A stretch of DNA of 64,000 bases, from positions 6,924 to 70,923 of the forward strand of contig SBAW01000011.1 in assembly GCA_005239955.1 (NCBI GenBank), given 5' to 3'. Source of the DNA: a bacterium. Lineage in GTDB: Bacteria > Patescibacteriota > Minisyncoccia > Phycocordibacterales > SBAW01. A model generated the notes under the pieces. The model was not told where the DNA came from, searched no databases, and saw nothing but the letters and a program-made list of their open reading frames with translations. This document shows, in pieces, positions 5,535-56,579 of the stretch. Both the position numbers and the translations under genes were made by a program. How positions within the stretch are numbered: the first letter of the stretch is position 1; each line of letters opens with the position of its first letter.

Positions 5535-5579
5535 CCTTATTCTTATGTTCTGCAGAACTACAGAGCATCAGAATAAGGA
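5535..5579. repeat. stem-loop CCTTATTCT…(27 nt)…AGAATAAGG sharing the AGAATAAGGA motif with the 3963-3995 palindrome
   Basis: 9-bp inverted repeat. The same decamer sits at the downstream edge of the upstream palindrome, so both may mark the cassette boundaries. Confidence 0.4.
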
Positions 5580-6074: not shown

Positions 6075-6082
6075 CTCGTCTC

Positions 6083-12409: not shown

Positions 12410-12411
12410 CT

Positions 12412-14086: not shown

Positions 14087-14304
14087 ACGGATTTGATGAA
14101 AATCGCGATCTGCTTTGTTGTAGCCTCCGGCGCTCCCTCACCTTATGTTTCCATAAGGCTCAGTTCATTTCTTACAGAAACCGTACACCTTTCGGCAATC
14201 TTCTTCGCACAACTCGAACATTGCTCGAAAGGTCTTGCGAAGCTTCAGGTATTCGCTTCTCACATCGGCTACGTCGCGCATCTCATCGATTTTCATCAAA
14301 TCCG

Positions 14305-15327: not shown

Positions 15328-15329
15328 AC

Positions 15330-15845
15330 ATGAGACCCCATCACTCACAACGTGGTTTCTCCCTTCTCGAAATGCTTATCTATATCAGCATTCTTGCGGT
15401 CATATCGGCGGTTGTGGTGGGGTCGCTTATTCCTCTTGCACGCTCGTATCGCCAGGTCGTGATGGCCTTGGCGATTAATAACTCCGGTTCTGCGGCGCTT
15501 GAGCGGATGGTCCGCGAAGTGCGACAGGCGACTGATGTCGGAGCAGGAAGTGTTCTCAACTCTTCACCAGGGACCCTCGTCCTTTCCTCGCTTGATAGCA
15601 CGGGCAACCCGATAACCATCACGTTTGATGTCTCGGGGGGAGCGGTGCGTATTACGGAGGGGGCGGGAACTCCCTACGCACTTACCGGCAGCGGTGTTGC
15701 GGTTTCGTCGCTCATCTTTACCTCGCAAACCAACGCGACCACCTCAAAGTTGGTTGGCATTGATCTCACATTAACGTCGACGGTTGGAGCACTTACGCGG
15801 TCGACACGATTTAAAGCAGGGGGCACGCTGCGCAATAGCTACTAA
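15330..15845 (+). CDS. pilin/pseudopilin-like protein
   Basis: SQRGFSLLEMLIYISILAVISAVVVG prepilin motif. Confidence 0.75.
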   Translation: MRPHHSQRGFSLLEMLIYISILAVISAVVVGSLIPLARSYRQVVMALAINNSGSAALERMVREVRQATDVGAGSVLNSSPGTLVLSSLDSTGNPITITFDVSGGAVRITEGAGTPYALTGSGVAVSSLIFTSQTNATTSKLVGIDLTLTSTVGALTRSTRFKAGGTLRNSY

Positions 15846-15846
15846 T

Positions 15847-19885: not shown

Positions 19886-20266
19886 TTATCTGAGAGCTGC
19901 ACGCAACTTTTCGGCGTTTCTGGCGAAATCTTTTTTGTCACCAACGTCGCCCTTCGTCCACGGAGAGGGGAAGAGCCACACATGCGCATGGTGGACTTCG
20001 TCGCCCATGATGCGGCTTACCACTGACTCGTTATCAAATGCCTTCTGCTGTGCTCTCGCTATTCTTTGCACAACCCTAAAATAGTCGCCAATATCCGGGT
20101 AGTCCCATACCCATCGGTAATGTTCCTTCGGGATCACTTGTACGTGGCCAGCCGATTGTGGATTGATATCGAGGAATGCCACAAAACGCTCATCTTCGTA
20201 AACCTTGTAAGAAGGTAGATCGCCTCGAACGATCTGACAAAATACGCAGTTCGTTTCGCTCGTCAT
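19886..20266 (-). CDS. HIT-family (histidine triad) hydrolase
   Basis: HVQVIP… and C-terminal HHAHVWLFP histidine triad. Confidence 0.85.
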   Translation of the reverse strand: MTSETNCVFCQIVRGDLPSYKVYEDERFVAFLDINPQSAGHVQVIPKEHYRWVWDYPDIGDYFRVVQRIARAQQKAFDNESVVSRIMGDEVHHAHVWLFPSPWTKGDVGDKKDFARNAEKLRAALR

Positions 20267-20280
20267 GCTACGATTTTAGC

Positions 20281-21999: not shown

Positions 22000-22421
22000 A
22001 ACGCGTAACGATTTATGCGGACGGGGGGGCGAGAGGCAATCCAGGGCCAGCGGGGGCAGGAGCAGTCATTCTTGATGAAAAAGGGAAAGTGTTAAAGGAA
22101 GTCTCTTCTTATTTGGGGGAGCAGACAAACAATTTTGCGGAATACGAAGCAGTGATACAGTCTCTTACTACACTCAAAAAACTCATTCCAGAAAAAGCAC
22201 GTAAAGATCTTCCTGTTGAAGTAAAGATGGATTCAGAGCTTGTTGTCCGGCAACTCAACGGCCTCTATCAAATAAAAGAAGAGACACTCTTTCCAAAATT
22301 TATTGCCGTGCACAACATGCGGGTGAAAGATTTCCCGCGCGTCACGTTCACCCATGTGCGCCGAGAAGAAAACAAAGAAGCTGACCGGCTCGTCAACGAC
22401 GCGATTGATCGCGGATCATGA
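21996..22421 (+). CDS. rnhA: ribonuclease HI
   Basis: IYADGGARGNPGPAG…NNFAEYEAV…KEADRL carries the DEDD catalytic residues. Confidence 0.8.
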   Translation: MKRVTIYADGGARGNPGPAGAGAVILDEKGKVLKEVSSYLGEQTNNFAEYEAVIQSLTTLKKLIPEKARKDLPVEVKMDSELVVRQLNGLYQIKEETLFPKFIAVHNMRVKDFPRVTFTHVRREENKEADRLVNDAIDRGS

Positions 22422-22777
22422 ACACACCCGTCAAATCATTTGTCACAGCAACCACTTTGGCAATCGTCGCGCTTCTCGGCGTTTCGATGTGGTGGCACAA
22501 CACATGGCTTCTCATTCCGTTTCTTATCCTCTGCGGCACCCTCCTCTGGCTCCTTCGGCGTTCGCGCGAAGACATTTACCTCTATTTTTTTGTTGCTGTT
22601 ATCGGACCGCTGTTTGAAATGATCGGCATTGCCGGAGGCGCGTGGCAGTACGCGGAGCCGTCGCTCTTTACCGTTCCGCTCTGGCTCCCGTTCTTGTGGG
22701 GCGCGGCGGCGCTCTATGTACGAAACTTTCTCGCGCTCATTGAACGCCGCGCCCCATCGAAATTCCTGAAGCAATGA
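22418..22777 (+). CDS. small polytopic membrane protein (paralog A)
   Basis: 3-4 TM segments. Similar to the next ORF (…IGPLFEMIGIAGG…SLFTVPLWLPFLWGAAALY vs …IGPLIDVVSGSAG…LLSLPLWSPLLGGLAVLY). Confidence 0.5.
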   Translation: MNTPVKSFVTATTLAIVALLGVSMWWHNTWLLIPFLILCGTLLWLLRRSREDIYLYFFVAVIGPLFEMIGIAGGAWQYAEPSLFTVPLWLPFLWGAAALYVRNFLALIERRAPSKFLKQ

Positions 22778-23091
22778 AAAGAGAAACATACTTGTTTGCC
22801 GGCGCCACAGGCATCCTTGTCCTGGGGCTCACTGTGGCTTTTCTTTTTTCAAGTAACACAACAATCGTCATCGGGGCGCTTCTTCTCACCGCACTTTTTA
22901 TGTGGCTTCTTCAGCCAACGCTTGATGGACTCGCATTTTATCTTCTCATCGTCATTATTGGGCCACTCATTGATGTGGTTTCAGGCTCCGCAGGTGAAAC
23001 GCGCGAAGGGCTCCTTAGTCTTCCACTGTGGTCACCGCTTCTCGGAGGTCTTGCAGTTCTCTATCTCAAAAGCTTTCTCTTGATTCTCTAA
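22774..23091 (+). CDS. small polytopic membrane protein (paralog B, tandem duplicate)
   Basis: See paralog A. Tandem, overlapping stop/start. Confidence 0.5.
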   Translation: MKRETYLFAGATGILVLGLTVAFLFSSNTTIVIGALLLTALFMWLLQPTLDGLAFYLLIVIIGPLIDVVSGSAGETREGLLSLPLWSPLLGGLAVLYLKSFLLIL

Positions 23092-23095
23092 GCCC

Positions 23096-24604
23096 ATGGC
23101 ATCCCGTGGTGTCGGCTTATTCTACGGAGCGGCACTGGGGTTTACCCTCGGCATATTCTTCCGCTCATTTGTTGATGGAGGATTTGCACTTGGAGTTCTG
23201 GTCCTCTTTCTGGGAGCGATTATTGGCCTTCTCTCGTTTCGTGAAAAGCGTGTATTTATCATCGCATTCGTGTTGGTGGGTATAGGAGGAGGGTTCTTGC
23301 GTCTTGATATTGCTGAGTTGCGCGCACCACAAGTTCTTGAGAATCGTGTCGGTGCACGCACCGTCCTTACCGGTATTGTTACCGATGAACCCGACGAGCG
23401 AGGGAATCACACGAAGCTTGCGGTGACCATTGTAAACAATGACGGCAAAAAAGAAGGCAGGGTTCTTGTTACGACCGATGTACATCCGCGCTACGCATAC
23501 GGTGATCGGTTACGCATCGTAGGGGGAATACAACTGCCAAAAACGTTTGAAGAAGAGGGTCGCGTCTTCGATTACCCCATGTATCTGCGAAAGGAGGGGA
23601 TTTGCTGTGTGATGTACTATCCGCAGGTTGAAAAAATCGCCGAAAGTAAAGGGAATGTAATCGTCGCAACACTTTTTAACCTCAAAGATGCATTCCTTGA
23701 GCGAGTCTCTCGTGTGATCCCTGAGCCGCAAAACGCTCTTCTCGCGGGACTTGTGGTTGGGGCAAAACAATCGCTCGGCGAACAATATCTTGAGCTCTTT
23801 CGGCGGGTCGGCATCATTCATATTGTCGTGCTGTCGGGCTACAACCTTCTTGTGGTTGCCCGATTCCTCATGGGGCTACTTGAGAAACTGCGCCCCCCCG
23901 TCAAAACAGGAGTCGGTATGGTAGGAATTGTGCTTTTTGCGATCATGACTGGCGCATCAGCAACAACGGTACGAGCAAGCGCTATGGCGCTCCTCTCGCT
24001 TGCGGCACAAGCAACGTCCCGCCTTTATTTGGTGACGCGTGCGTTAGTTGTCGCAGGCCTCCTCATGCTTATCGTCAATCCGTATCTCCTCGTCTTTGAT
24101 GCATCATTTCAACTATCATTTCTCGCAACGGTGGGGCTCATTTATTTCTCGCCTTATTTTGAACGCGTCTTTTCGTGGGTCCCAAAGCGATTTGCGCTCC
24201 GCGAAATTGCGGCAGCTACTGTTGCAACACAACTTGCGGTCTTGCCGCTTCTCCTCTATCAAACCGGACTTTTTTCGCTCGTTTCGCTTCCGGTCAATCT
24301 CCTCATTCTCCCTATCATCCCCCTCACCATGTTTCTCGGATTTCTCACCGGTATGCTCGGATTTATAAGTGTGTGGCTCTCACTTCCTTTTGCTTATCTC
24401 TCGCACCTCCTCCTTTCATACATCTTTCTTATTTCGCAGTGGTTCAACAAACTGCCATTTGCAGCCTACGATCTTGGGGAATTTCCTCTTTGGGCACTCG
24501 CACTTTCATACGGCGCTCTTGTGGCGCTTGTCGTCTGGAAGCGGAAAATAGTAAGACCAACTACGAGAGCGTCAGAAAACGTTGCTCTGCCACATCCCAA
24601 TTGA
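23096..24604 (+). CDS. comEC: ComEC/Rec2 DNA internalisation channel (DUF4131 + competence domain only)
   Basis: Many TM helices. Core IIHIVVLSGYNLLVVARFLMG corresponds to the ComEC HxxxSGxH region. No C-terminal MBL domain in this ORF. Confidence 0.75.
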   Translation: MASRGVGLFYGAALGFTLGIFFRSFVDGGFALGVLVLFLGAIIGLLSFREKRVFIIAFVLVGIGGGFLRLDIAELRAPQVLENRVGARTVLTGIVTDEPDERGNHTKLAVTIVNNDGKKEGRVLVTTDVHPRYAYGDRLRIVGGIQLPKTFEEEGRVFDYPMYLRKEGICCVMYYPQVEKIAESKGNVIVATLFNLKDAFLERVSRVIPEPQNALLAGLVVGAKQSLGEQYLELFRRVGIIHIVVLSGYNLLVVARFLMGLLEKLRPPVKTGVGMVGIVLFAIMTGASATTVRASAMALLSLAAQATSRLYLVTRALVVAGLLMLIVNPYLLVFDASFQLSFLATVGLIYFSPYFERVFSWVPKRFALREIAAATVATQLAVLPLLLYQTGLFSLVSLPVNLLILPIIPLTMFLGFLTGMLGFISVWLSLPFAYLSHLLLSYIFLISQWFNKLPFAAYDLGEFPLWALALSYGALVALVVWKRKIVRPTTRASENVALPHPN

Positions 24605-25142
24605 GGTTTTTGAAAAATGCCTCAATATAATTTTTCTTTTCTGCCGGCGTGTAGTCAACCATGTAGGCATGCTCCCACATGTCCATGGCAAGGATGACGG
24701 GAAGCCCGGCGAGCTGTCCAAGTTCGTGATCACCCACCCACGCGCTATGAAATTTTTTTACCTTGGGGTCGAAATACAAAATTGTCCATCCAATGCCGCG
24801 CGTCATGCCCACTGCTTTAAAGTGTCCGAGCCACGTTTCAAACGAGCCGTGTTGGGCGCCAAGCGCCGCCTGGAGACGTGATGCATCGGGGTTCACCCCT
24901 TTCTCCCACTGCGAGAAGTAATATTCGTGCATGCGCATACCATCAAATTCAAACGGGAGACGGCGGTGCACCTCGCCAAGCGCGTAGGCATTTTTCTCGG
25001 CATCTTTCATGAGATCTTTCTCAACATCAAGAAGGGTGTTGAGAAATTTCACGTAGCCGCCATAGAGCTTGAGGTGTACGTCGAGCTGCTTTTGCGAGAT
25101 ACCCTCAAGCGCCGGAAGATCGAATTTTTGTTCCTGGTACAT
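24561..25142 (-). CDS. sodA: Fe/Mn-family superoxide dismutase (divergent)
   Basis: C-terminal DMWEHAYMVDY metal-ligand motif, N-terminal LPALEGIS…VHLKLY. The usual first His pair is partly diverged. Confidence 0.7.
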   Translation of the reverse strand: MYQEQKFDLPALEGISQKQLDVHLKLYGGYVKFLNTLLDVEKDLMKDAEKNAYALGEVHRRLPFEFDGMRMHEYYFSQWEKGVNPDASRLQAALGAQHGSFETWLGHFKAVGMTRGIGWTILYFDPKVKKFHSAWVGDHELGQLAGLPVILAMDMWEHAYMVDYTPAEKKNYIEAFFKNLNWDVAEQRFLTLS

Positions 25143-25169
25143 AGTCTCGTAGAAGGTGATAGGTTATAG

Positions 25170-26069
25170 GTGTTAGCAGTATATCAAATGGTCCGAATTA
25201 GGCGTTTCCTGAAAACTTTTGAGTCCTATGCCGCGCTTGTTATTTTCATTATCTTATTCTGTGCCGCTTTTATTATCGCGGTTCACGCATTCGGAAATGC
25301 GGGAAGTGGGAGGCTCGCCGTTGCCTTCCTCGACGTGGGGCAGGGGGACGCGATCTATATTGAATCGCCGACCGGAGTACAGGTGCTTATTGATGGCGGT
25401 CCCGACAAATCAGTGCTCGCGGAACTAAGCAGCGTGATGCCATTCTTTGACCGCTCGCTCGACGCTCTTGTTGTCACGAATCCGGATCAGGATCATTTTG
25501 CGGGATTTATTGATGTGCTCAATCGCTACGATGTCAGCACATTCATTGAGCCGGGCGTAGAAAAACTGTCGGGGAGCTGGGAAGATTTAGAGCGTCGTGT
25601 TGGTGAGGAGGGCGCGGCGCGCGTTGTTGCGCGCCGCGGGCAATCGATTGATATCGGTGGGGGAGCGGTCATTGATATTTTGTTTCCCGACCGAGATGTT
25701 GCGGGTGTCGAGTCAAATACCGGCTCCATCATCGCGCGACTGCGCTATGGCGCGAGCAGTGTTCTACTTATGGGCGATTCGGTGAAAGGGGTTGAGGAAT
25801 ATCTGGTGTCACTTGATGGTCCGCATCTTCGAAGCGATATCCTTAAAATCGGCCATCACGGTTCGCGCACATCGACCTCCGACGCGCTTCTCTTTGCCGC
25901 GACACCCGCAATTGCGATCATCTCTGCCGGCAAAGACAACCGCTACGGCCATCCGCACCAAGAAGTCATAGATACACTCAGACGTTTCAACGTTGAAACA
26001 CTTATTACCGCGAACGAAAACACCGTCCTCTTTGAGAGCGATGGTGTTTTGTTTCGAAGAATCGATTGA
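25170..26069 (+). CDS. metallo-beta-lactamase domain protein, ComEC C-terminal domain-like (separate gene)
   Basis: AVAFLDVGQGDAIYIE…DALVVTNPDQDHFAG…LKIGHHGSRTSTS matches the ComEC MBL domain. Confidence 0.75.
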   Translation: MLAVYQMVRIRRFLKTFESYAALVIFIILFCAAFIIAVHAFGNAGSGRLAVAFLDVGQGDAIYIESPTGVQVLIDGGPDKSVLAELSSVMPFFDRSLDALVVTNPDQDHFAGFIDVLNRYDVSTFIEPGVEKLSGSWEDLERRVGEEGAARVVARRGQSIDIGGGAVIDILFPDRDVAGVESNTGSIIARLRYGASSVLLMGDSVKGVEEYLVSLDGPHLRSDILKIGHHGSRTSTSDALLFAATPAIAIISAGKDNRYGHPHQEVIDTLRRFNVETLITANENTVLFESDGVLFRRID

Positions 26070-30484: not shown

Positions 30485-30545
30485 TCAGGGTACCCTGTTG
30501 CCGAACGCCTGCCCCGTAGTAAGTCCGAAGGATTTTCCTACTGGG

Positions 30546-30578
30546 GTCGCGAAGGAAATCATTGAGTCTCGCAAATAA
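30546..30578. repeat. diverged duplicate of the fusA 3' coding end (encodes VAKEIIESRK* vs genuine [10 protein letters not shown])
   Basis: 33-nt segment 61 bp downstream of the fusA stop aligns to fusA 30452-30484 with about 8 mismatches, same reading frame and stop. Confidence 0.6.
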
Positions 30579-30735
30579 GAATATCCTCGCTGCCGGCACG
30601 GGAATATTCTTTTTGCCGTCGCTCGCTCGAAAAAGAACACGGGTGCTCTTTTCCCTCGCTTCACTAGGCAATAGTCTTTGACTTCAGGGAGTAAAGCGCT
30701 TCAATAGAGAAAGTGGGCAACCGGAGGAGGCGACT

Positions 30736-31254
30736 ATGTACGCCGCAAATCCGCTTTCTACAATTGTCGCGACCCTCAAACAGGTGTGGGACATCGCCCC
30801 CTCGCAGTGGGGGGAGACGCGGTTTGTTTCAGAGTTCAGCGGCAGGTGGGGTGAGTTCTACACGCTTGAAGCAAGTTGGTACCAGTATTTCGCAGACAAA
30901 AAGAAGGGCCGACTTGTCCTCGAATACTACCTCCCGTTCTGTCTCATGCCGCGGAGCGATTCCGCGAAGATTGCACGCTTCATGCGGGTCATGAACGAAG
31001 GGGTGCGTCGCTACAAACTCATGACACTGGCTTTTCGGACGGCGCGCCGGCAATTCTGTTTTTCGCGAGAGCGTGAGACTGAGGCGCCTTATGTGGAAGG
31101 GCCAAGCGAAAGCGTGAAAGAGTCGCTGTACCACGAGATATGCTTTACGCAGCTCTCTTACCCCTTGTGGACGAGATTTCTCCGGGAGGAAGAACTTGTT
31201 GCGGCCTTCGTCGATTTCGCCTATATGGCGGCGGCAAGCGACTACAATATGTGA
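30736..31254 (+). CDS. hypothetical protein (172 aa), GC-rich insert between fusA and tuf
   Basis: ORF preceded by GGAGGAGG RBS. About 58% GC. No family recognised. Confidence 0.45.
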   Translation: MYAANPLSTIVATLKQVWDIAPSQWGETRFVSEFSGRWGEFYTLEASWYQYFADKKKGRLVLEYYLPFCLMPRSDSAKIARFMRVMNEGVRRYKLMTLAFRTARRQFCFSRERETEAPYVEGPSESVKESLYHEICFTQLSYPLWTRFLREEELVAAFVDFAYMAAASDYNM

Positions 31255-31263
31255 AGGAAGAAC

Positions 31264-31290
31264 CCGGCCGCTGCCAAGCGGCCGGGTCTT
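31264..31290. terminator. GC hairpin ACCCGGCCGC-TGCCAA-GCGGCCGGGT
   Basis: Inverted repeat right after the 30736..31254 ORF. Confidence 0.5.
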
Positions 31291-31383
31291 CGCGTTTGTT
31301 GACACGTCGCGGAAAGAGTGTAGAACAATGATTAGAGAATTGCGCGCAGAAACAGTTTTTGAAAGGGAAGGAACCCCGACCAT

Positions 31384-31768
31384 GACAGCCACTACAGTGC
31401 CGTTCGGCTTCGACTACCTCGCCGCTTTCGACGCGGCGAAGGACGCTTTGCGGCGAACGCTCGGTGACCTCGGCCCGCGCACCAGAGCGATCCTCAATGC
31501 CGGGGCTGGCGACTACCAGATGGTTTTCGCTGCGGCGGCCGAGGAATCGCCAGACACCATGGTCGCTTCGATCGAGGCGACCAATGCTGACGAACGTGCC
31601 GAGTGGGCGTACTGGGGAGCTCGTTTTCTTCGCCCCGGCCCGCTTCGCGACCGACTCCTCACCGTCATCGCCAGGTCCCCCAGTCCGATGGTGAAATGGT
31701 GGGCATTGACGACGATCGACGGCATCTCCCCCGAGATTGCGGCCCTGTTCCAGAAAGAGGCCCGCTGA
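31384..31768 (+). CDS. hypothetical protein (128 aa), GC-rich insert between fusA and tuf
   Basis: ORF MTATTVPFGFDYLAAFDAAKDALRR…. Ala/Arg-rich, no family recognised. Confidence 0.4.
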
Positions 31769-31777
31769 AAGGAATGA

Positions 31778-31803
31778 CCCGGCCGCACCCTGCGGCCGGG
31801 TCA
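31778..31803. terminator. GC hairpin ACCCGGCCGC-ACCCT-GCGGCCGGGT (near-copy of the 31264 hairpin)
   Basis: Same 10-bp stem as the 31264 hairpin. Directly after the ORF stop. Confidence 0.5.
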
Positions 31804-32005
31804 TGATACTTTTCGCCTTCATTCATTGACTGTTTTTAACCTTCGCAGTAGGATAACTGCTACGCAGAAATGCGTCGTTTTTATTCTGGGATAGTCCTCC
31901 CGAATAAAAACCATCTGTGCGAGCATCGACAGGGGGTGCACGCAAAATTATTTATAACGATTATAAAAAACGGAGACGTCCCTGGTCCGCTCCGGAAGAA
32001 TTATT

Positions 32006-43704: not shown

Positions 43705-44976
43705 ATGGATACATTTCTCACCAAACTGAAGCTTCTTGTTACCGATACGACGCTCCGCAATCGGATCCTGTTTGTGCTCGGTGCCTTGGCGCTCTTTCGT
43801 GTGCTCGCGGCAATTCCCATTCCTGGCGTTAACGTTGCTCAGCTTGAACAATTCTTCGCCAATAACCAATTCCTGGGACTTCTTAATATTTTCTCGGGCG
43901 GCGGGCTCTCAAATCTCTCCATCGTCCTTCTCGGCGTTGGTCCCTACATCACCGCCTCCATCATCATGCAGCTTCTCACCATCATGATCCCGAAGCTCAA
44001 AGCGCTCTACCAAGAGGAGGGAGAAGCGGGACGCAAACGCTTTGCACAGTACTCGCGCCTCCTCACCCTTCCCATGGCGCTTCTCCAGGGGTTTGGATTC
44101 TTGGTTCTCTTTGAACGCCAAGGACTCGTGGATTCACTCGGGACATTTAACTTTGTCGTAAATCTCGGCATCATTACGGCAGGCTCACTTCTCCTTATGT
44201 GGATTGGTGAACTTATTTCGGAATTTGGTATTGGAAACGGCGTCTCGCTTCTCATCTTTGCTGGTATCGTGGCGAGCTTCCCACAAACCATAAGTCGGCT
44301 CGTCTTTTCCTTCGATGTTTCCCAAGTCCCGCTTTACCTCGGATTCCTCGTGGTGGGGCTCATTATTATTGGGGGGGTCGTTACCATGACCGAGGCTGAG
44401 CGCCCGGTTCCCGTGACCTACGCCAAGCGGGTGCGTGGCATGAGGGTGTATGGAGGTACTGCAACGTATCTTCCCCTTCGCGTCAATCAGGCGGGCGTTA
44501 TCCCGATCATCTTCGCACTCTCCATTCTTCTGTTTCCACAAATGATTTTCAACTTCCTTGCAGGCCTCAATATTCCGGCCATTAACGCCATTGCGACGAC
44601 CGTTCTCGCCGGACTCCAAAATAGCCTCGTCTATGGGCTCATCTACTTCATTCTGGTCTTCCTCTTTACCTACTTCTACACGGCAGTGACGTTTGATCCC
44701 GACACGATTGCCAATAATCTCCAGAAAAGTGGGGCATTTATTCCCGGCGTTCGTCCTGGTCCCTCAACTTCGCAGTATCTGGGGAACGTTCTTACGCGCA
44801 TTACGCTTGTGGGCGCGCTTTTCCTTGGCTTCATTGCGGTCCTGCCGATTGTGATGCAGTCCATAACCGGTATTCAAGCGCTGGCACTTGGTGGTACCGC
44901 GCTCCTCATCGTGGTGTCAGTGGTCTTGGACTTGGTACGAAGAATCGACGCTCAGATTTCGATCAGAGAATACTAG
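43705..44976 (+). CDS. secY: preprotein translocase subunit SecY
   Basis: 10-TM profile, conserved …LGVGPYITASIIMQLL… and …IPGVRPG… motifs. Confidence 0.95.
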   Translation: MDTFLTKLKLLVTDTTLRNRILFVLGALALFRVLAAIPIPGVNVAQLEQFFANNQFLGLLNIFSGGGLSNLSIVLLGVGPYITASIIMQLLTIMIPKLKALYQEEGEAGRKRFAQYSRLLTLPMALLQGFGFLVLFERQGLVDSLGTFNFVVNLGIITAGSLLLMWIGELISEFGIGNGVSLLIFAGIVASFPQTISRLVFSFDVSQVPLYLGFLVVGLIIIGGVVTMTEAERPVPVTYAKRVRGMRVYGGTATYLPLRVNQAGVIPIIFALSILLFPQMIFNFLAGLNIPAINAIATTVLAGLQNSLVYGLIYFILVFLFTYFYTAVTFDPDTIANNLQKSGAFIPGVRPGPSTSQYLGNVLTRITLVGALFLGFIAVLPIVMQSITGIQALALGGTALLIVVSVVLDLVRRIDAQISIREY

Positions 44977-45539
44977 GCTGCCCACTTTTTGTAGGAATCC
45001 AGGACAATAGCAATAACCTGCGCTAAATTGTTTTTCTTCGTGTCAACGAGGAGATCAAATGGCGAAGTGTCGGTGGTGTCGATACCATAAAGATTCATAT
45101 AGCGCTTGCGCTCACTGGTGACTCGAATATCAATATTCTTTCGAACTTCTTCGACTGATTGTGCCTCCTGACTCACACGGCCCTCCGTCACAATGTGATT
45201 ATAAATTCGCTCTGCCGCCGTATCGGGGTCAAGCGATAGATAAACCTTAAATGACTCAGGCATCCAATGGAAAGCGAGTCGTGAATCAATAACAAACTCA
45301 CTCTCTTCTCGCCCCATTTTTTGAAGCAGTTCGTCGACTTGATGATCGATCTCTTTCTGCTCTTCTGCGGTGAGATTAATCGCTTCAATGGAGAGCCCGC
45401 GCTCCTTTGCGATTTTCCGAAAAAGGTCCCCTGAAGAAAAATGACGAAACCCCAGTTTTTGTGCGACACCTTTGGCAGTTGATGATTTACCACTACCGAC
45501 CGCCCCCGCGAGCGTAATAATGCGCTTTTGATTTTCCAT
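44973..45539 (-). CDS. cmk: cytidylate kinase
   Basis: P-loop GAVGSGKSST, NMP-binding …FSSGDLFR…. Opposite strand between secY and adk. Confidence 0.75.
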   Translation of the reverse strand: MENQKRIITLAGAVGSGKSSTAKGVAQKLGFRHFSSGDLFRKIAKERGLSIEAINLTAEEQKEIDHQVDELLQKMGREESEFVIDSRLAFHWMPESFKVYLSLDPDTAAERIYNHIVTEGRVSQEAQSVEEVRKNIDIRVTSERKRYMNLYGIDTTDTSPFDLLVDTKKNNLAQVIAIVLDSYKKWAA

Positions 45540-45612
45540 AGACGTCGCGATTGTACCACGCTTCATCGTAAAAAACCTTGTTATTCTTAGGTTTCTTAGC
45601 TATAGTACCGCC

Positions 45613-46215
45613 GTGAACGCGCGAACCATCATCTTTATTGGCTCTCAAGGATCGGGGAAAGGAACCCAAGCGGATCTTCTCAAAGCCGCACTTGAAAAAT
45701 CATCTCCGAATTTTGCTGTTATGAAGCACGACACTGGTGCATCCTTCCGCGCCTTTTGTAAGGAACATCCCGGAAATTACACGGTGAAGATGGTTGAAGA
45801 GTCGCTCAATAAAGGCAATCTTCAGCCCTCTTTTCTTCCGATTTATCTCTGGACGAAAGATTTTATCGATCACCTGCGCGGAGAAAAAACACACGTTGTT
45901 ATCGACGGCTCGCCGCGCACCACGCTTCAAGCAGATACCCTTGATGAGGCTCTCACCTTCTATGGCCGAGAGAATGTCTCGGTCATATATCTGGTGCTAT
46001 CTCCAGATTTATCGGTAAAACGACTACTCTTGAGAGGTCGCGCCGATGACACCGAAGTCTCCATTCGTCGTCGTCTCGCGCTCTATGAGAAGCAAACCAA
46101 ACCAATCCTCGATTATTTCAAATCGCATCCGCGCTACGACATTCTTGAAATAAACGGCGATCAGACTGTCGAAGCAATTCACGCCGAAATCAAACAAAAA
46201 CTGGCACTGCCGTAA
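45613..46215 (+). CDS. adk: adenylate kinase
   Basis: P-loop GSQGSGKGTQ. LID and NMP regions recognisable. Confidence 0.85.
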   Translation: MNARTIIFIGSQGSGKGTQADLLKAALEKSSPNFAVMKHDTGASFRAFCKEHPGNYTVKMVEESLNKGNLQPSFLPIYLWTKDFIDHLRGEKTHVVIDGSPRTTLQADTLDEALTFYGRENVSVIYLVLSPDLSVKRLLLRGRADDTEVSIRRRLALYEKQTKPILDYFKSHPRYDILEINGDQTVEAIHAEIKQKLALP

Positions 46216-46275: not shown

Positions 46276-47046
46276 ATGAGTATTCTCACGAAGAAAGAAG
46301 ATATTGCTGCCTTGCGTGAGGCGGGTCGGCGACTCGCACGCATTCTTGATGTGCTTGCGGGAGAAGTGAAACCGGGAGTGCGTGCCGTAGATCTTGATCG
46401 CAAAGCGCAGGCGCTTATTGAAGCAGGAGGCGATACGCCCGCCTTTTTAGGCTACACACCCTGGGGCGCAAAGCGCCCGTACCCGGCAACCCTCTGCGTT
46501 TCGATAAACGATGAAGTAGTGCATGGTATTCCCAACGAATCGGAAAAAATTCTCAAAGAGGGTGACATTGTTGCCCTCGACGTCGGTCTCGTCCATAAAG
46601 GCCTTTACGCAGATATGGCCACCTCGGTAGCGGTTGGGCATGTTGATGCGAAGAGTAAGAAGCTTATACAAGCGACAAAAGAAGCGCTTGATAAAGGCAT
46701 TGCCGCAGCAGGTCCGGGTGCCTACCTCGGCGATATTGGGGCGGCAATTGAGGCGGTCGCCAAGTCGTATGGTTTTCGTGTTGTTGAAGAGCTTGGCGGG
46801 CATGGCATTGGCAAAGTGCTTCACGATGAGCCGCATGTCCCCAATTACGGAGTGAAGGGAGAGGGAGTTGAGCTTGTGCCGGGTATGGCGCTTGCGCTTG
46901 AGCCGATTTTTAACGCGGGGAAGAAAGACGTGAAACTCATGCGCGATGGCTACACCTATAAAACAGTAGACGGTTCGCGTAGTGCCCATGTCGAGCATAC
47001 GATCCTCATAACTCCAAACGGTTCGGAAGTCGTCACAAAAATCTGA
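46276..47046 (+). CDS. map: type I methionine aminopeptidase
   Basis: Pita-bread fold motifs …DIVALDVG…, …GHGIG…HDEP…, …LEPIF…. Confidence 0.9.
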   Translation: MSILTKKEDIAALREAGRRLARILDVLAGEVKPGVRAVDLDRKAQALIEAGGDTPAFLGYTPWGAKRPYPATLCVSINDEVVHGIPNESEKILKEGDIVALDVGLVHKGLYADMATSVAVGHVDAKSKKLIQATKEALDKGIAAAGPGAYLGDIGAAIEAVAKSYGFRVVEELGGHGIGKVLHDEPHVPNYGVKGEGVELVPGMALALEPIFNAGKKDVKLMRDGYTYKTVDGSRSAHVEHTILITPNGSEVVTKI

Positions 47047-47060
47047 GATATAATTAGAGA

Positions 47061-49829
47061 ATGGAAAAACGGGAGCGACTTCTCCCCACATCTCCTGAAG
47101 CGCGTGCGGAGCTTGAGGCTCTTCGCGCTGAAGTAAAACGGCGCGAAGAGGCGCTCCGTCTTGAGGGTGAACGGGAACCACGCTCTCAAGCAGTAAAAGA
47201 GACCGTTGCGGCTGTACGCGAACCTATCGCAAAGGATATCCCCGCGCCGGAGGGTATTGTGCTCAAACTCTCTCCGGAGGTACATGATACCCGCATGGGA
47301 GAACTTATCGGAGTGCTCCAGGAAAAGGGTATCAAAAAAGCATTCGAGGAAGTACTCTCAACCCGAAATCCGCATCTTATCGACGACTTCCATCGCGTCC
47401 TCGTAGAGTATCTCCACGAAGGGCACCCATCAGATATCGCGCCGCGAAGTAGGGCGGGCCGGGAACTCGCCATGGTCCTCTACGAAGTGTCGCTTCCTGA
47501 AGTTGCGAAGAAAGAAGAGCAGGAGAAAAAGCCCCTCAAAGAGCTCGTCTCCTCTATGGAGCAGTTTTATCAAGGCATGATTGCGGTTGGGGGAGGAGGG
47601 GGCTCGCACCACTTTTCCATTGAACTTGCGGTCCCCAACAGCGGCGAGCGCCTCTCCTTTTACGTCGCCGTTCCTCGGGAGAAAGTAGAGCTCTTTGAAA
47701 AGCAGATTGTATCCATTTTCCCGCACGCAAAAATTCGCGTCCATCAAGACGATTACAACATTTTCAATGAAGAGGGAAGTACGGTTGGCGCTGAAGCAAC
47801 GTACGGGAAGCGCATGATTTTTTCACTCAAAGGCTACGACGAGTTTGATTACGATCCCCTCAACGCCATTCTCTCCTCGTTTGCCAAACTCGCGAAGGTA
47901 GGTGAAGGGGCTGCCATACAACTCGTCGTAAGCCCGCGGCGCGGCGACTGGTATTTACGCAAATTCCAGCACGCGCTCCACCGCATCCATCGGGGAGTTA
48001 TCTTCCAGCGTGCAACCGATGTTCGGACCTCTTTCCTCGGGCAATTGTGGGTTGGTTTTAAGGATTTCTTCTTTAACGATAAACGCAAACGCCACAGCCA
48101 GTATGAGGAGGGCATGGATCAGGCTGATAAAAAGAAAGCGGAGAACATTGAGAAAAAAACCAGTAGCCCCATCGTTCTCGCAAACCTCCGCATTCTTGTC
48201 TCAACGTCCTCAGTTGGCCGCAGCCGCGCCGTCCTTGCCGATCTTGCCGCAAGCTTCAACCAATTTGAGGACACTTTTGGCAACAAGCTCTATTTCAACG
48301 AGTACTCGGGCGGGAGGCTGCGAAAACTTGCGCAAGATTTTATCTTTCGGCGGTTCACGAGGGGTTCTGCGCTTCCGCTTTCAACCAAAGAAGCGACGAC
48401 CATGATCCACTTCCCGCCGATTGGCATTGAAACTGCGCCTGAGCTCAAACAAGCAAAAGCGGGAGTCGCAGCAGCTCCTGTTGAGATTCCTCAAGAAGGG
48501 GTGCATCTTGGCGTCAATAAGTTTCGCGCAAAAGACACGCAAATTTATCTCACACCCCCCGATCGCCTGCGGCATTTTTATGTTATTGGTCAAACCGGTA
48601 CCGGCAAATCGACACTTCTTAAAAATATGGTTATTCAAGATATCGAGGCAGGGAAGGGGGTGTGCATGATTGATCCTCACGGCACCGATATTGTGGAAGT
48701 GCTCTCGCGCGTCCCCAAAGAGCGCTACGAGGATGTTATTTACTTTGATCCAGCGGCAACGGAGCGTCCCATGGGACTTAACATGCTCGAGTACGACACG
48801 CGCTTCCCTGACCTCAAGACGTTTGTGGTGAACGAAATGTTCGGCATCTTTAAGAAGCTCTACAAAGATGTGCCCGAGAGCATGGGTCCCCTCTTTGAGC
48901 AGTATTTCCGGAACGCTACGATGCTCGTCATTGAAGATCCCGAAACAGGCTCAACCCTTCTTGATATTTCTCGCGTCATGGCAGACGCGGATTTCCGTGC
49001 GCTGAAACTTTCCCGCTGCAAAAATCCCATTGTCATTCAGTTTTGGCGCGACATTGCTGAAAAAACGGGCGGCGAACACGCGCTTCAGAATATGGTGCCG
49101 TGGATCACCTCAAAGTTTGATGTGTTCCTCAGTAACGACATCATGCGCCCGATTGTGGTTCAAGAAAAATCAGCCTTCAACTTCCGCGAGATTATGGATG
49201 ACAAGAAAATCCTCTTAGTAAATCTTGCCAAAGGACGCCTCGGTGATATTAATGCCAACCTCCTTGGTCTCATTATTGTGGGGAAGATCCTTATGGCGGC
49301 GCTGTCGCGCGTTGATTCCTTTGGGAAAGAGTTGCCGCCGTTTTATCTCTACATCGACGAGTTCCAGAACTTTACGACTGATTCCATTGCTACCATTTTC
49401 TCTGAAGCCAGAAAGTACGGCCTCTCGCTTACCGTGGCGCATCAGTTTATCGCGCAGCTTGAGGAAAAAATTCGCGATGCGGTATTTGGGAACGTGGGGT
49501 CGCTCTGTTCCTTTCGTGTTGGTCCCGAGGATGCCGAGTTTCTGGAAAAACAATTCGGACCGACCTTTACAAAAAACGACATTATGAATCTTGATAACCA
49601 CAACGCATATGTACGTCTCCTGGTTCGCGGCAGACCCGAGAAACCATTTAACTTCGAAACACTTCCTTTCTCGGTGGGGAACCTCGCGACTGTTGACAGC
49701 CTCAAAGAGTTGTCGTATCTTAAATACGGCCGAAGTCGGAGCGAAATCGAAGCTGAAATCTCTGCTCGATACGAAGATCGATCAGTGCTTGATGAGCTCG
49801 ACGAGACACCTGCCATGGGCATTCAGTAA
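47061..49829 (+). CDS. TraD/VirD4/TraG-type coupling-protein-like AAA (DUF87/HerA-like) ATPase, 922 aa
   Basis: Walker A FYVIGQTGTGKSTLLKNMVIQDIEAGKGVCMIDPHGT (DUF87/TrwB pattern), Walker B …LYIDEFQNF…, …EARKYGLSLTVAHQFIAQL… (TraG-D_C-like). Long unique N-terminal half. Confidence 0.6.
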   Translation: MEKRERLLPTSPEARAELEALRAEVKRREEALRLEGEREPRSQAVKETVAAVREPIAKDIPAPEGIVLKLSPEVHDTRMGELIGVLQEKGIKKAFEEVLSTRNPHLIDDFHRVLVEYLHEGHPSDIAPRSRAGRELAMVLYEVSLPEVAKKEEQEKKPLKELVSSMEQFYQGMIAVGGGGGSHHFSIELAVPNSGERLSFYVAVPREKVELFEKQIVSIFPHAKIRVHQDDYNIFNEEGSTVGAEATYGKRMIFSLKGYDEFDYDPLNAILSSFAKLAKVGEGAAIQLVVSPRRGDWYLRKFQHALHRIHRGVIFQRATDVRTSFLGQLWVGFKDFFFNDKRKRHSQYEEGMDQADKKKAENIEKKTSSPIVLANLRILVSTSSVGRSRAVLADLAASFNQFEDTFGNKLYFNEYSGGRLRKLAQDFIFRRFTRGSALPLSTKEATTMIHFPPIGIETAPELKQAKAGVAAAPVEIPQEGVHLGVNKFRAKDTQIYLTPPDRLRHFYVIGQTGTGKSTLLKNMVIQDIEAGKGVCMIDPHGTDIVEVLSRVPKERYEDVIYFDPAATERPMGLNMLEYDTRFPDLKTFVVNEMFGIFKKLYKDVPESMGPLFEQYFRNATMLVIEDPETGSTLLDISRVMADADFRALKLSRCKNPIVIQFWRDIAEKTGGEHALQNMVPWITSKFDVFLSNDIMRPIVVQEKSAFNFREIMDDKKILLVNLAKGRLGDINANLLGLIIVGKILMAALSRVDSFGKELPPFYLYIDEFQNFTTDSIATIFSEARKYGLSLTVAHQFIAQLEEKIRDAVFGNVGSLCSFRVGPEDAEFLEKQFGPTFTKNDIMNLDNHNAYVRLLVRGRPEKPFNFETLPFSVGNLATVDSLKELSYLKYGRSRSEIEAEISARYEDRSVLDELDETPAMGIQ

Positions 49830-50000
49830 ATCCGCTCGGCAATTTCCCTCAAAAGCACACATATTTCGTTGCTACGAAATTGCTCCGCTCGCGCCGTCGC
49901 GCTCCGCGAGGCTTTTTAGTGAAACAGCCTCACTCTGGTGTGAAGACAAGAGATGCCTGATAAACTAAGCTAATTAACCTCTCCACTGTTTGAAACGAAT

Positions 50001-50594
50001 ATGCCCAAAATACATAATCCGAAAGAAGAAAAAACGTTTTTGATCATTAAGCCTGATGGCGTTCGTAAAGGACTCATTGGCGAAGTTATTAAACGACTTG
50101 AACAGCGCGACCTCAAAGTAGTCGCGCTTGAGATGTTTCATCCCAACCGCGCGGAGATGGACAATCACTATCCGAAAGACGAGAAATGGATTCGTCGCCT
50201 CGGAGAAAAGACCATGGCGACCTACGTGAAGTACGGTTATGACATTAAGAAAGATTTTGGTACGAGCGATCTTCTGCGTGTCGGGAAAACCGTTCGCGGG
50301 TGGCTTGTGGAGTTCATGATTTCGGCCCCGATGGTGAAGATGGTTGTCCAGGGCGTTCACGCAGTCGATATTGTGCGAAAAATTGTCGGTAAAACCATGC
50401 CATATGAAGCGGAAATGGGCACGATTCGTGGGGATTTCTCGGCCGATTCTCCGGCGCTCGCGAATACCGAGCGACGTGCCGTCTTTAACCTTGTTCATGC
50501 ATCAGAAACGCCGGAAGAGGCCAAGTACGAAATTAAACACTGGTTCCCCGGGCAGAAAATCTTTTCCTATAAACGCTTCGGGGTTGACGAATAA
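50001..50594 (+). CDS. ndk: nucleoside diphosphate kinase (with insertion)
   Basis: EKTFLIIKPDGVRKGLIGEVIKRLE…, active-site region …NLVHASET…. Confidence 0.85.
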   Translation: MPKIHNPKEEKTFLIIKPDGVRKGLIGEVIKRLEQRDLKVVALEMFHPNRAEMDNHYPKDEKWIRRLGEKTMATYVKYGYDIKKDFGTSDLLRVGKTVRGWLVEFMISAPMVKMVVQGVHAVDIVRKIVGKTMPYEAEMGTIRGDFSADSPALANTERRAVFNLVHASETPEEAKYEIKHWFPGQKIFSYKRFGVDE

Positions 50595-55615: not shown

Positions 55616-56010
55616 TGGTGGAGATGGGCGGAATCGAACCGCCGTTCAATGATGATTACCAGTGCGATCTTCAGTGTATAGATTGTCTTATATCTTTCAG
55701 CCTATCCTGTGAGAGACAATCAGAACCAGGATAGGCTAAAGTCCTTAGTCTCGACGCCGTGCGCGGACAACACGGTTCGCAGCCTCATGATATTACGCCC
55801 AGTCAAAGCTATGAGGCGTTGCCTTGATAGACGTCACTTAGGCCGTAGCGTAAGCGAAAGCAAAGCTGTTCCCCGAGAAATACGGAGAAACAAGTGATTT
55901 TGCCCGTGAAACTAGATTGTTTGCACGTGTGGTTTCCGGATTTTTACGAAGTTCCGGACTTCGACACTGCACGCAGGAGGTGCACGTCATTGTCTAGGCC
56001 GATCATCCCC
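55616..56010 (-). ncRNA. ssrA: tmRNA (SsrA), about 395 nt
   Basis: Minus strand: 5' GGGGAUG pairs with 3' CAUCUCC-A-CCA (G3·U70). Canonical T-arm GGCGG-UUCGAUU-CCGCC, encoded CCA. In-frame tag-like segment …GGG AAC AGC UUU GCU UUC GCU UAC GCU ACG GCC UAA (G N S F A F A Y A T A *) at about 55838-55873. smpB lies 120 bp away. Terminator hairpin AGCUCCC-UUCU-GGGGGCU + U-run follows the 3' end. Confidence 0.7.
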
Positions 56011-56132: not shown

Positions 56133-56579
56133 TTAGTATTTCGTTTTCAACGAACGCTCCATAGATCGCTTTTCTTCCCGCGCCGCAATAGTCTGACGTT
56201 TGTCGTGCTTTTTCTTTCCTCGCACAACCGCGATCTGGAGTTTCAACTTGTGCCCCTTATTATACACCGAAACAGGGATAATTGTCAATCCCTTTTGGTG
56301 CTCATAGCCCCCCAGCTCCCCAATCTCCTTTTTGGTAAGGAGGAGGCGCCTGGGACGCGCCTCATCATAACTCTGCGGAGTGTTTTTCGGCTGATAGGGG
56401 GGAATGGCCATTCCCACAACAAACACCTCACCGCCGCGCACGAGTACCCGGCCACCTTCAAGTTTTCCATGCTTGTCTCGGAGTGCTTTCACCTCAAAGC
56501 CAAAAAGCTCTACACCGGCATCGTACTCGGCGAGAAATTCGTAGTTAAGGCGCGCTTTCTTGTTTTCTATCAGGCTCAT
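56133..56579 (-). CDS. smpB: SsrA-binding protein SmpB
   Basis: …NKKARLNYEFLAEYDAGVELFGFEVKALR…RPRRLLLTKKEI…GKKKHDKRQ… canonical SmpB. Confidence 0.9.
   Translation of the reverse strand: MSLIENKKARLNYEFLAEYDAGVELFGFEVKALRDKHGKLEGGRVLVRGGEVFVVGMAIPPYQPKNTPQSYDEARPRRLLLTKKEIGELGGYEHQKGLTIIPVSVYNKGHKLKLQIAVVRGKKKHDKRQTIAAREEKRSMERSLKTKY

Follow-up and report, generated by a model that had tools for sequence, protein, structure and literature searches.

The open reading frame at positions 47,061 to 49,829 (plus strand) of the window, by which we mean the entire analysed stretch of 64,000 nucleotides, is a full coding sequence for a DUF8128-type ATPase of the coupling-protein family, 922 residues in length. 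We interpret the gene as a domesticated coupling ATPase of the DetA/DUF8128 type, which would act with a Patescibacteria type IV secretion system (T4SS) encoded elsewhere, a reading to which we assign a probability of about 0.5. In a cultivated patescibacterium, T4SS genes belong to the small set of functions with demonstrated essentiality for epibiotic growth, and its T4SS appears to operate without a coupling protein and without a relaxase. Here a near-universal gene of Paceibacteria specifies a coupling-type motor with a predicted VirB4-like head, evolving at the pace of ribosomal-cluster genes, and it offers a specific candidate for the second T4SS ATPase that is missing, or for a clearly exapted one.

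Domain architecture of the ATPase

Translation bore out the frame and all motifs quoted for it in a first-pass annotation, and the following features were delineated:

47,061–47,450, plus strand: N-terminal helical extension, residues 1–130, charged helices and a small helical bundle in the secondary structure of the model
47,451–48,425, plus strand: DUF8128 domain, residues ~131–455, with the predicted fold of the VirB4 N-terminal domain
48,588–48,611, plus strand: Walker A (P-loop) GQTGTGKS, residues 510–517, from translation
48,810–49,160, plus strand: putative all-helical insertion separating Walker A from Walker B, residues ~584–700, seven consecutive predicted helices with pLDDT 55–66
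49,338–49,544, plus strand: TraG-D_C (PF12696) match, residues 760–828, including SEARKYGLSLTVAHQ, 27.4 bits (cut-off 22)
49,341–49,373, plus strand: Walker B region FYLYIDEFQNF with D766 and E767, from translation

The SEARKYGLSLTVAHQ motif is translated from 49,401–49,445, inside the TraG-D_C segment. The full length is conserved across homologues and the catalytic residues are invariant among 34 sequences, where neither M1 nor the Walker residues (G510, Q511, T512, G513, G515 and K516 of Walker A; D766, E767, F768, Q769 and N770 of Walker B) show any variation. Homologues number 2,821 at E<1e-5, and a database protein that is 100% identical carries the annotations PF26449, PF01935, PF02534 and PF12696. 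The architecture is DetA-like, a PF26449 (DUF8128) N-domain fused to a DUF87/TraG-D_C motor, and was not found among the five subfamilies in the consulted reviews on type IV coupling proteins (T4CPs); a literature search for 'DUF8128' returned no papers. Most T4CP subfamilies possess an N-terminal transmembrane domain, and a subfamily devoid of it is recognised. The present ATPase is soluble, without a transmembrane segment: no hydrophobic 19-mer precedes Walker A, either in the 922-residue protein or in 120 CPR homologues (0/120).

The C-terminal motor is assigned by sequence to the T4CP (VirD4/TraD/TrwB) family. In the Pfam scan PF01935, PF10412, PF12696 and PF02534 all pass their gathering cut-offs narrowly, at 22.8–29.4 bits, with PF02534 at 28.4 bits (cut-off 20.1) and PF10412 at 22.8 bits (cut-off 20.5), the latter spanning the P-loop only. 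The first three of these are the models by which the first-pass annotation proposed to check its assignment, and although they exceed the curated thresholds weakly, the TraD/VirD4-like motor it described holds: the T4CP models are above cut-off, TrwB is the best match in a profile search of PDB sequences (limited to the P-loop), and DetA is homologous. An equivalog-level match to TraD, TraG or VirD4 was not reached, the best NCBIfam model being SXT_TraD with 53.6 bits (cut-off 366). Structurally, the C-terminal half resembles TrwB (TM 0.59), Cagβ and DotL, in a model of only moderate confidence for this half (pLDDT about 55–70), and the putative helical insertion sits where TrwB-type coupling proteins have their all-alpha domain.

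The N-terminal half, previously described as long and unique, corresponds to PF26449 and is common to actinobacterial and staphylococcal relatives, and the structure prediction proposed for the first 450 residues yields a VirB4-type fold rather than a unique domain. All significant Foldseek matches of the N-domain (13/13) are TrwK chains, with no other P-loop ATPase among them, and thus the match is to the non-ATPase domain of VirB4. Comparison by hhalign of the ATPase family with the AAA_10 VirB4 of a pWBG4-family plasmid returned a probability of 2%, with no N-domain signal at the sequence level, so that the VirB4 link derives from predicted structure only. The preceding extension (residues 1–130) is lineage-specific and absent from a short form of ~790 residues; the alignment of a 792-residue Wolfebacteria homologue with the 922-residue ATPase begins only at residue 145, and in the actinobacterial branch a hydrophobic anchor takes the place of the extension.

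Three other identities were considered for the protein and rejected. The VirB4 families of Pfam (AAA_10, TraC_F_IV and CagE_TrbE_VirB) do not match, and TIGR00929 (VirB4) reaches 16.3 bits against 643 in NCBIfam, on the P-loop only; the whole protein is hence not a VirB4/TrwK, as the fold of the N-domain fits but the C-terminal ATPase has no VirB4 sequence-model match. FtsK, the family that the first-pass annotation had set against its own reading, fails with FtsK_SpoIIIE (PF01580) at 15.9 bits, under the cut-off of 24; with no transmembrane helices and no Pfam match to a gamma domain, an FtsK/SpoIIIE DNA translocase was dismissed. A HerA helicase, of HerA-NurA or defence type, was discarded in view of the helicase_HerA equivalog (16 bits against 970, NCBIfam), an N-domain modelled as VirB4-like rather than as a barrel, and the lack of a partner gene.

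Gene order and conservation in Paceibacteria

The genes and signals flanking the ATPase gene in the window are:

44,973–45,566, minus strand: convergent cytidylate-kinase/AAA_17-like gene (AAA_17 1.5e-16, Cytidylate_kin2 6.5e-16)
45,613–46,215, plus strand: adk (Pfam ADK)
46,276–47,046, plus strand: map (Pfam Peptidase_M24)
49,897–49,920, plus strand: terminator-like GC hairpin and then a T-run, 68 nt past the stop codon, from a consensus scan with a site count near that of shuffled sequence
50,001–50,594, plus strand: ndk (Pfam NDK 1.6e-35), a conserved downstream neighbour by synteny

The secY-adk-map order, taken for a canonical run, does precede the frame, but it is interrupted between secY and adk by the minus-strand gene, which was detected upstream in 7 of 35 map-linked related loci. 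The gap between adk and map is 60 nt and that from the map stop codon to the ATG of the ATPase gene 14 nt, and the three genes are probably co-transcribed in this genome; a consensus scan, with a site count no higher than in shuffled sequence, placed a promoter-like site at 45,578–45,606. Contrary to the broader proposal, the core translation operon does not show conserved co-transcription with the ATPase gene: the convergent gene parts secY from adk here, and in relatives variable genes spanning 63 bp to 7 kb keep map and the ATPase gene apart. The window is indeed free of alpha-operon genes, with infA, rpsM, rpsK, rpoA and rplQ absent from all ORFs scanned. The ATPase gene was moreover thought to occupy the slot where infA-rpmJ-rpsM-rpsK-rpoA-rplQ are expected, yet no locus variant examined has the alpha operon after it; thus nothing has been displaced, and we rejected an insertion at the expense of this operon.

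The placement, regarded at first as unusual, recurs widely. Of the 57 species loci whose upstream flank was long enough, 35 have map upstream, and ndk lies downstream in 32 of the 57 loci with sufficient downstream flank, none of the loci lacking an upstream map having ndk. This map…gene…ndk arrangement is scattered across the ATPase protein tree and looks ancestral. The location behind map would reflect ancestral gene order where the spc and infC-rpmI-rplT operons meet and does not point to a functional tie to translation; the ribosomal-cluster placement is ordinary inherited synteny. In one housekeeping context the gene is surrounded by adk, map, ndk, β-CASP nuclease and LOG-like genes, and the downstream variants comprise ndk/β-CASP/LOG, ndk with an rRNA operon, and engB/pilin/rbfA/infB. 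Other clades have it beside the dcw cluster, two of them directly after mraZ-rsmH-ftsL-ftsI-murF. Paralogues do not account for the two genomic contexts, which follow clades of one orthologous tree. The β-CASP nuclease, ndk and LOG were likewise rejected as functional partners, being missing from the dcw and other contexts; as no neighbour moves along with the ATPase gene, no functional partner is indicated, and the adjacency of adk and map is universal, hence uninformative on the function of the ATPase.

The gene is near-universal, single and slowly evolving in the lineage, with a median identity of 52.9%, as conserved as map and L15, and its GC content equals that of the flanks, the composition not being atypical. 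All named distant matches are Paceibacteria, Minisyncoccia or Wolfebacteria. The 'Saccharibacteria' labels of some metagenome-assembled genomes among the related loci look unreliable, because loci so labelled are among those giving 59.6–71.2% SecY identity.

The VirB4/VirB6-like partners that the first-pass annotation suggested locating were found neither in the 64-kb window nor within ±10 kb in 80 related species loci. Domain scans of the window ORFs detected no T4SS partner or relaxase, and no VirB4, relaxase, integrase or other transfer gene was seen near the ATPase gene in the window; similarly, none of the 80 loci has a T4SS gene within 10 kb. A Replic_Relax/MOB_C relaxase and a VirB4 are not adjacent at this locus, the neighbours being map upstream and ndk downstream. 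The window also carries genes associated with DNA uptake, namely type IV pilus genes, ComEC and RecJ.

Proposed role and alternative explanations

We propose that the ATPase represents, within the VirB4/VirD4 branch of the HerA-FtsK superfamily, the subtype of DetA and of an actinobacterial family of integrative conjugative elements (ICEs), in which an N-domain of predicted VirB4 type (DUF8128) is fused to a T4CP-type motor with a putative helical insertion and TraG-D_C; its relatives fill the coupling-protein slot of MPF_FATA conjugation modules. In Paceibacteria, domestication would have entailed loss of the relaxase neighbour and the membrane anchor as well as separation from the T4SS genes, leaving a single, vertically inherited core gene. 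Domestication is suggested by the N-terminal hydrophobic segment missing throughout the CPR members, the map- and L15-like identity, the contexts following one tree and the ordinary composition. Solved members of the VirB4/VirD4 branch are hexameric, and as the most likely mechanism we infer that a hexamer may assemble at the cytoplasmic face of the membrane, where the VirB4-like head, extrapolating from R388 VirB4, could dock on VirB3/VirB8-type subunits of the relaxase-less Patescibacteria T4SS; ATP hydrolysis would then power the delivery or intake of a substrate (DNA or protein) via the T4SS channel. The analysis itself establishes the architecture, homology, fold, missing transmembrane segment, conservation and synteny, and the hexamer, docking partner, substrate and dependence on a T4SS belong to the proposed mechanism.

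It is already known from Quiñonero-Coronel et al. 2025 (PMC12102498) that VirD4-type homologues are near-universal in Patescibacteria (matches in 2,918 of 3,035 genomes) and mostly distant from virB4, with VirB4 in 2,417 genomes against the 2,918 with t4cp homologues, and our protein almost certainly belongs to this T4CP homologue set. The Patescibacteria T4SS is described there as MPF_FATA-derived, pilin-bearing and relaxase-less, and in S. epibionticum the T4SS is essential and a separate t4cp homologue dispensable (PMC12102498). The essential T4SS cluster of Saccharibacteria has no recognisable coupling protein (PMC10633639). Considering the latter two observations, the argument from T4SS essentiality, by which the first-pass annotation linked the gene to an epibiotic lifestyle, does not transfer to this ATPase. 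Furthermore, the excess of t4cp homologues over VirB4 and their dispensability in S. epibionticum both fit a T4SS-independent role, against our preferred explanation, and the lack of T4SS genes in the window and within 10 kb at the 80 loci also counts against a T4SS-coupled role.

A possible but less probable explanation is an exapted housekeeping translocase independent of any T4SS, serving FtsK/HerA-like chromosome segregation or repair, or else handling imported nucleic acid so that nucleotides can be salvaged by an organism unable to make them. The housekeeping-grade conservation, the constant location in housekeeping contexts (dcw in two clades) and the DNA-uptake genes of the window are congruent with such a role, and exaptation of t4cp homologues has been suggested by the survey authors (PMC12102498). 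The genomic contexts nevertheless provide little direction, as no neighbour accompanies the relocated gene and the adk-map adjacency is uninformative; the FtsK_SpoIIIE and HerA scores fall below their cut-offs, the latter by far; no transmembrane or septum-targeting region is present; and those relatives that are characterised or informative in context all reside in T4SS modules.

Two further explanations are highly improbable. The nearest relatives outside the CPR lie on conjugative plasmids and ICEs, and weaker ones in Bacillus plasmids and phages, as would be expected of a remnant of an integrated element or plasmid landed after map by chance in this genome; this is however effectively refuted by the conserved synteny, 35 of the 57 species loci sharing the position despite a protein identity of only about 53%, with an apparently ancestral tree pattern, and disagrees with the conserved length, the invariant catalytic residues, the GC content equal to the flanks and the missing relaxase, integrase, VirB4 and other transfer genes nearby. 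An anti-phage defence ATPase of HerA or MADS type draws on a PADLOC mad8 match (50.7 bits, residues 504–807), weak matches to several HerA models and HerA defence complexes among the structural matches of the ATPase half, but these hits reach no further than the generic ATPase core, the locus has neither an effector nor a partner gene and is not in a variable defence island, and a near-universal, single, slowly evolving gene is unlike the patchy defence genes.

Returning to the domesticated coupling ATPase, a more far-reaching and rather doubtful extension is that DUF8128 ATPases might constitute a third VirB4/VirD4 lineage, with a VirB4-type head on a coupling motor, intermediate between both T4SS ATPases and in Paceibacteria an indispensable, relaxase-independent housekeeping component. 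If true, the protein could be a motor for uptake or exchange of host-derived macromolecules via the pilus-bearing Patescibacteria T4SS, and the actinobacterial ICE module (T4SS pilin, PrgI, VirB4, DUF8128, Replic_Relax) would be the closest living relative of the whole system. Taken with the near-universal coupling-type motor, its VirB4-like head and its slow evolution, the presence of the nearest relatives in pilin-bearing Gram-positive ICE modules offers a way to test where the Patescibacteria T4SS came from.

Comparison with known coupling ATPases

The survey of Patescibacteria (PMC12102498) does not describe the DUF8128/VirB4-like N-domain, the lack of transmembrane segments, the conserved map…ndk synteny or the relationship with DetA and actinobacterial ICEs. 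Canonical T4CPs such as TrwB, VirD4 and TraD share the Walker A/B motor and the TraG-D_C segment, and their helical insertion has a putative counterpart here, but they carry a transmembrane domain at the N-terminus and lack the VirB4-like one. TrwK/VirB4 of R388 shares the two-domain soluble architecture, whereas the VirB4 families AAA_10, TraC_F_IV and TIGR00929 give no match beyond the P-loop; the relatives of our protein co-occur with a bona fide VirB4 encoded separately within one module. TraJ of pIP501 (PMC7434980), compared by description, is also an anchorless coupling motor presumed to dock on a membrane partner, yet TraJ-type proteins are described as acting alongside a small membrane protein, TraI in the case of pIP501, and no large VirB4-type N-domain is described for them (PMC7434980).

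The closest relatives outside Patescibacteria occupy the coupling-protein slot of Gram-positive-type modules, together with a separate VirB4 and a Replic_Relax relaxase, and comprise DetA of the staphylococcal plasmid pWBG4 and an actinobacterial ICE family with >2,000 members carrying PF26449. DetA, a putative VirD4/MobB-type coupling protein with the MOB_C relaxase DetB, has the same DUF8128-like N-domain and DUF87/T4CP-type motor and no transmembrane helix. The alignment by hhalign with the DetA homologue of the pWBG4-family plasmid p12-02300 covers ~600 columns at a probability of 99% (E 9e-18, target residues 140–823), with an identity of only about 21% and with an additional helical N-terminal extension of 130 residues in our protein. 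On its plasmid, for which conjugation has been shown experimentally, DetA shares a module with Replic_Relax, TcpC, TcpE and an AAA_10 VirB4, neighbours that our ATPase does not have.

The actinobacterial ICE members (~800 residues, annotated as 'type IV secretory system conjugative DNA transfer family protein') combine the same PF26449 with PF10412, PF01935 and PF12696, and a Streptomyces member shows 27% identity over residues 181–870 (E 4e-53). Their module contains T4SS_pilin, PrgI, VirB4, the DUF8128 ATPase, Replic_Relax and SLT/NlpC_P60, with integrases on the flanks. Thus, while the actinobacterial ATPases are found between VirB4 and Replic_Relax in integrase-flanked elements with a T4SS pilin, and bear an N-terminal hydrophobic anchor, the Paceibacteria protein is stand-alone, anchorless and vertically inherited.

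A VirB4-type head on a coupling-protein motor

The gene directly after map encodes a coupling-type ATPase, and the reading frame and motifs quoted by the first-pass annotation were all recovered at verified coordinates:

47061-49829 (+): open reading frame, ATG to stop, 922 aa
48588-48611 (+): Walker A, GQTGTGKS
49341-49373 (+): FYLYIDEFQNF, holding the Walker B Asp-Glu
49401-49445 (+): motif SEARKYGLSLTVAHQ

The start codon is supported by the invariance of M1 in an alignment of 34 homologues, in which the catalytic residues are likewise invariant. All three Pfam families proposed at first pass, and also PF02534 (T4SS-DNA_transf), exceed their gathering cut-offs by small margins (scores of 22.8-29.4 bits), while FtsK_SpoIIIE stays under its own. 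No NCBIfam equivalog is close, the top one being SXT_TraD with 53.6 bits versus 366. The TraD/VirD4-like assignment of the motor was right. A hydrophobic segment before Walker A was found in none of 120 Patescibacteria homologues (the CPR family), and the sole hydrophobic stretch of the protein (residues 730-748) belongs to the ATPase core, immediately ahead of Walker B. The absence of an N-terminal hydrophobic segment predicts a soluble protein.

AlphaFold2 modeled the full-length protein with moderate confidence (pLDDT 71) and residues 125-480, modeled separately, with good confidence (pLDDT 81, pTM 0.80). Among solved structures the whole model best fits R388 TrwK/VirB4 chains, aligning over about 930 columns; TrwB (TM 0.59), Cagβ, DotL and HerA match its C-terminal half only. 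For the N-terminal domain, 13 of 13 significant Foldseek matches are TrwK chains. Since both fold-match lists of the N-domain are free of other P-loop ATPases, and since the Hcp1 tag in 7o42 has too few residues to explain a match of 250, the match must be to the non-ATPase N-terminal domain of VirB4. Judged by predicted structure, the N-terminal half, initially considered unique, is a VirB4-type N-domain. Neither VirB4 sequence models nor the AAA_10 VirB4 of a pWBG4-family plasmid match this half, thus the likeness is visible in structure only. Aggregated, the protein is a soluble two-domain ATPase that joins a VirB4-type head to a type IV coupling protein (T4CP) motor.

Genomic setting and inheritance

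Upstream, the gene follows the S10/spc ribosomal genes and these neighbors:

43705-44976: secY
44973-45566 (-): cytidylate-kinase/AAA_17-like gene, well supported
45613-46215: adk
46276-47046: map

The secY, adk and map genes of the supposedly canonical run are indeed present, but the run is broken by the minus-strand kinase-like gene, the 3' end of which overlaps the secY end by 4 nt. This gene was also detected in 7 of 35 map-linked related loci (L055, L064, L066, L067, L068, L074 and L076). As only 14 nt separate map from the ATPase gene, adk, map and the latter plausibly form one transcription unit. Sites resembling a promoter and a terminator lie on either side, but our scans found such sites no more often than in shuffled sequence. 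Downstream follow ndk, a DUF2238-like ORF, a β-CASP/RMMBL nuclease and a LOG/SLOG protein, and beyond these convergent rplT-rpmI-infC, tmRNA and smpB, then ftsH and recG. The ndk gene (50001-50594, +) is long, 197 aa against the 135 positions of the Pfam NDK model, and matches it in two stretches, which together suggest an insertion or N-terminal extension. The tmRNA (55616-56010, -, 107 bits) adjoins a 148-aa ORF (56133-56579, -) with an SmpB match in the near-identical contig L001. As first noted, alpha-operon genes are missing: rpsM, rpsK, rpoA and rplQ are not among the scanned window ORFs of at least 100 aa. The 64-kb window also has no VirB4, VirB6 or relaxase genes.

Elsewhere the window carries type IV pilus genes, recJ and comEC. 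The DNA-uptake genes cluster at 10652-17130 and 20176-26069, with PilB, PilC and at least three pilin-like ORFs with N_methyl motifs, then recJ and RNase H. ComEC may be split here, as its 'Competence' domain protein (23096-24604) and a stand-alone metallo-β-lactamase protein (25170-26069) have a minus-strand sodA-like gene between them. The fusA and tuf genes lie 1.5 kb apart (30485-32005), which is unusual inside a str operon, and the gap holds only ORFs 30736-31254 (+) and 31145-31822 (-), both without Pfam match. Positions 3200-6200 have elevated GC (0.56 versus about 0.51), ORFs without Pfam matches and no Rfam family at gathering score. Finally, the sole recognizable domain of a 770-aa ORF (113-2425, +) is a C-terminal GNAT acetyltransferase (aa 628-756), its first 600 aa being unannotated.

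Database searches returned 2,821 homologues of the ATPase (E<1e-5). The best 120 of these (840-999 aa, 91-100% query coverage, 54-100% identity) derive from Patescibacteria (Paceibacteria/Parcubacteria) wherever a source is named, and all bear the precomputed PF26449, DUF8128. The family is encoded in at least 589 genomes in a scan of one genome per species, from which 80 loci were fetched. Where the flank exceeds 4 kb, map lies upstream in 35 of 57 loci and ndk downstream in 32 of 57, and the recurring order is rplO-secY-adk-map-[63 bp to 7 kb of variable genes]-ATPase-ndk-(DUF2238)-β-CASP-LOG-rplT(-)-infC(-). A second recurrent context is mraZ-rsmH-ftsL-ftsI-(murF)-ATPase, then yqeY, rmuC, rplU, recR and dnaB. 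In a neighbor-joining protein tree the map/ndk context recurs throughout, loci with the dcw context group in two derived clades and those without recognized neighbors fall into a few small clades; the contexts follow the clades, so the genes are orthologues relocated in particular lineages. No neighbor was seen to co-migrate when the context changes. As the alpha operon follows the gene in none of the locus variants inspected, the end of the cluster at map is a lineage property, with nothing displaced. Median identity between the window protein and its relatives is 52.9% over full length, compared with 52.1% for map, 53.1% for L15, 65.2% for SecY, 37.5% for Adk, 41.6% for Ndk and 46.8% for the β-CASP nuclease, the pattern of a strongly constrained core gene and not of mobile-element cargo. 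In Paceibacteria the gene is lone, slowly evolving and vertically inherited, and its place after map, which had been taken as unusual, is ancestral synteny.

Relatives in conjugative systems

Beyond Patescibacteria, 592 plasmid records matched in tblastn, all with query coverage of at most 80%. Two matches reach into the N-domain, one on staphylococcal pWBG4-family plasmids over aa 197-835 and one on a Streptomyces replicon over aa 181-870 (27% identity, E 4e-53). The staphylococcal relative is DetA, the putative coupling protein of conjugative pWBG4, in the module order DetA, Replic_Relax, TcpC, TcpE, AAA_10 (VirB4) and a membrane protein; hhalign of our family against the DetA homologue of p12-02300 gave 99% probability (E 9e-18) over aa 140-823, spanning both domains. 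The Streptomyces relative is one of more than 2,000 actinobacterial family members that share the PF26449-plus-T4CP architecture; in three genomes the module runs in the order T4SS_pilin, PrgI (VirB3), VirB4, the DUF8128 ATPase, Replic_Relax and an SLT/NlpC-P60 hydrolase, and integrases and a resolvase lie close by. The ATPase is homologous to DetA and to these actinobacterial ICE coupling proteins. From both modules it follows that this protein type ancestrally filled the coupling-protein slot in Gram-positive-type conjugative T4SSs, with a separate VirB4 and a MOB_C-like relaxase as neighbors.

T4SS_pilin (PF18895, VirB2-like) occurs alongside the DUF8128 ATPase in two actinobacterial ICE loci (L088:3407-13587 and L089:3829-13367). 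VirB2-like pilins are held by a recent review to be unique, among monoderm systems, to the Patescibacteria T4SS, and the pilin-bearing ICEs may be the closest relatives of that whole system. A phage search found 45 records, Bacillus phages for the most part; distant relatives at 20-24% identity are present in large Bacillus-group phages (OP628075.1, NC_011421.1 (SPO1 gp27.4) and NC_023719.1 (phage G gp156)), some alignments beginning within the N-domain (aa 198-238).

Proposed role and comparison with known systems

We give a probability of roughly one half to a T4SS-coupled role, in which the protein would assemble as a hexamer, dock by its VirB4-like head onto membrane T4SS subunits, and energize or gate substrate passage through the relaxase-less Patescibacteria T4SS. 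The VirB4 N-domain of R388 is known to contact VirB3 and VirB8. The main rival, in our judgment the less probable, is a motor exapted to a T4SS-independent housekeeping task, e.g. segregation, repair or nucleic-acid salvage. Such exaptation would suit the housekeeping contexts of the gene, the published finding that t4cp outnumbers virB4 and the fact that one species can dispense with t4cp; however, no partner moves with the gene, and every informative relative has a T4SS setting. A mobile-element remnant is very unlikely given the core-gene conservation and a base composition that is not atypical, and a defense system is equally improbable.

VirD4-type T4CP homologues occur in 2,918 of 3,035 Patescibacteria genomes (5,713 copies), just 148 of them near virB4; the T4SSs are MPF_FATA-derived and mostly without relaxases, the t4cp homologue of S. 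epibionticum is not essential, and exaptation was proposed (Quiñonero-Coronel et al. 2025, PMC12102498). As, moreover, the essential T4SS cluster has no recognizable coupling and relaxase proteins (Wang et al. 2023, PMC10633639), the link to T4SS essentiality drawn by the first-pass annotation is not supported. In the literature searched, we found no mention of DUF8128 and no description of the architecture, relatives or synteny reported here; the presence of such genes in Patescibacteria is already reported, in aggregate. T4CPs comprise five architectural subfamilies, one TMD-less and none described with a VirB4-like N-domain (review PMC7434980). The Patescibacteria ATPase differs from canonical VirD4, TraD and TrwB in its predicted solubility, and from the actinobacterial DUF8128 ATPases, which possess an N-terminal hydrophobic anchor.
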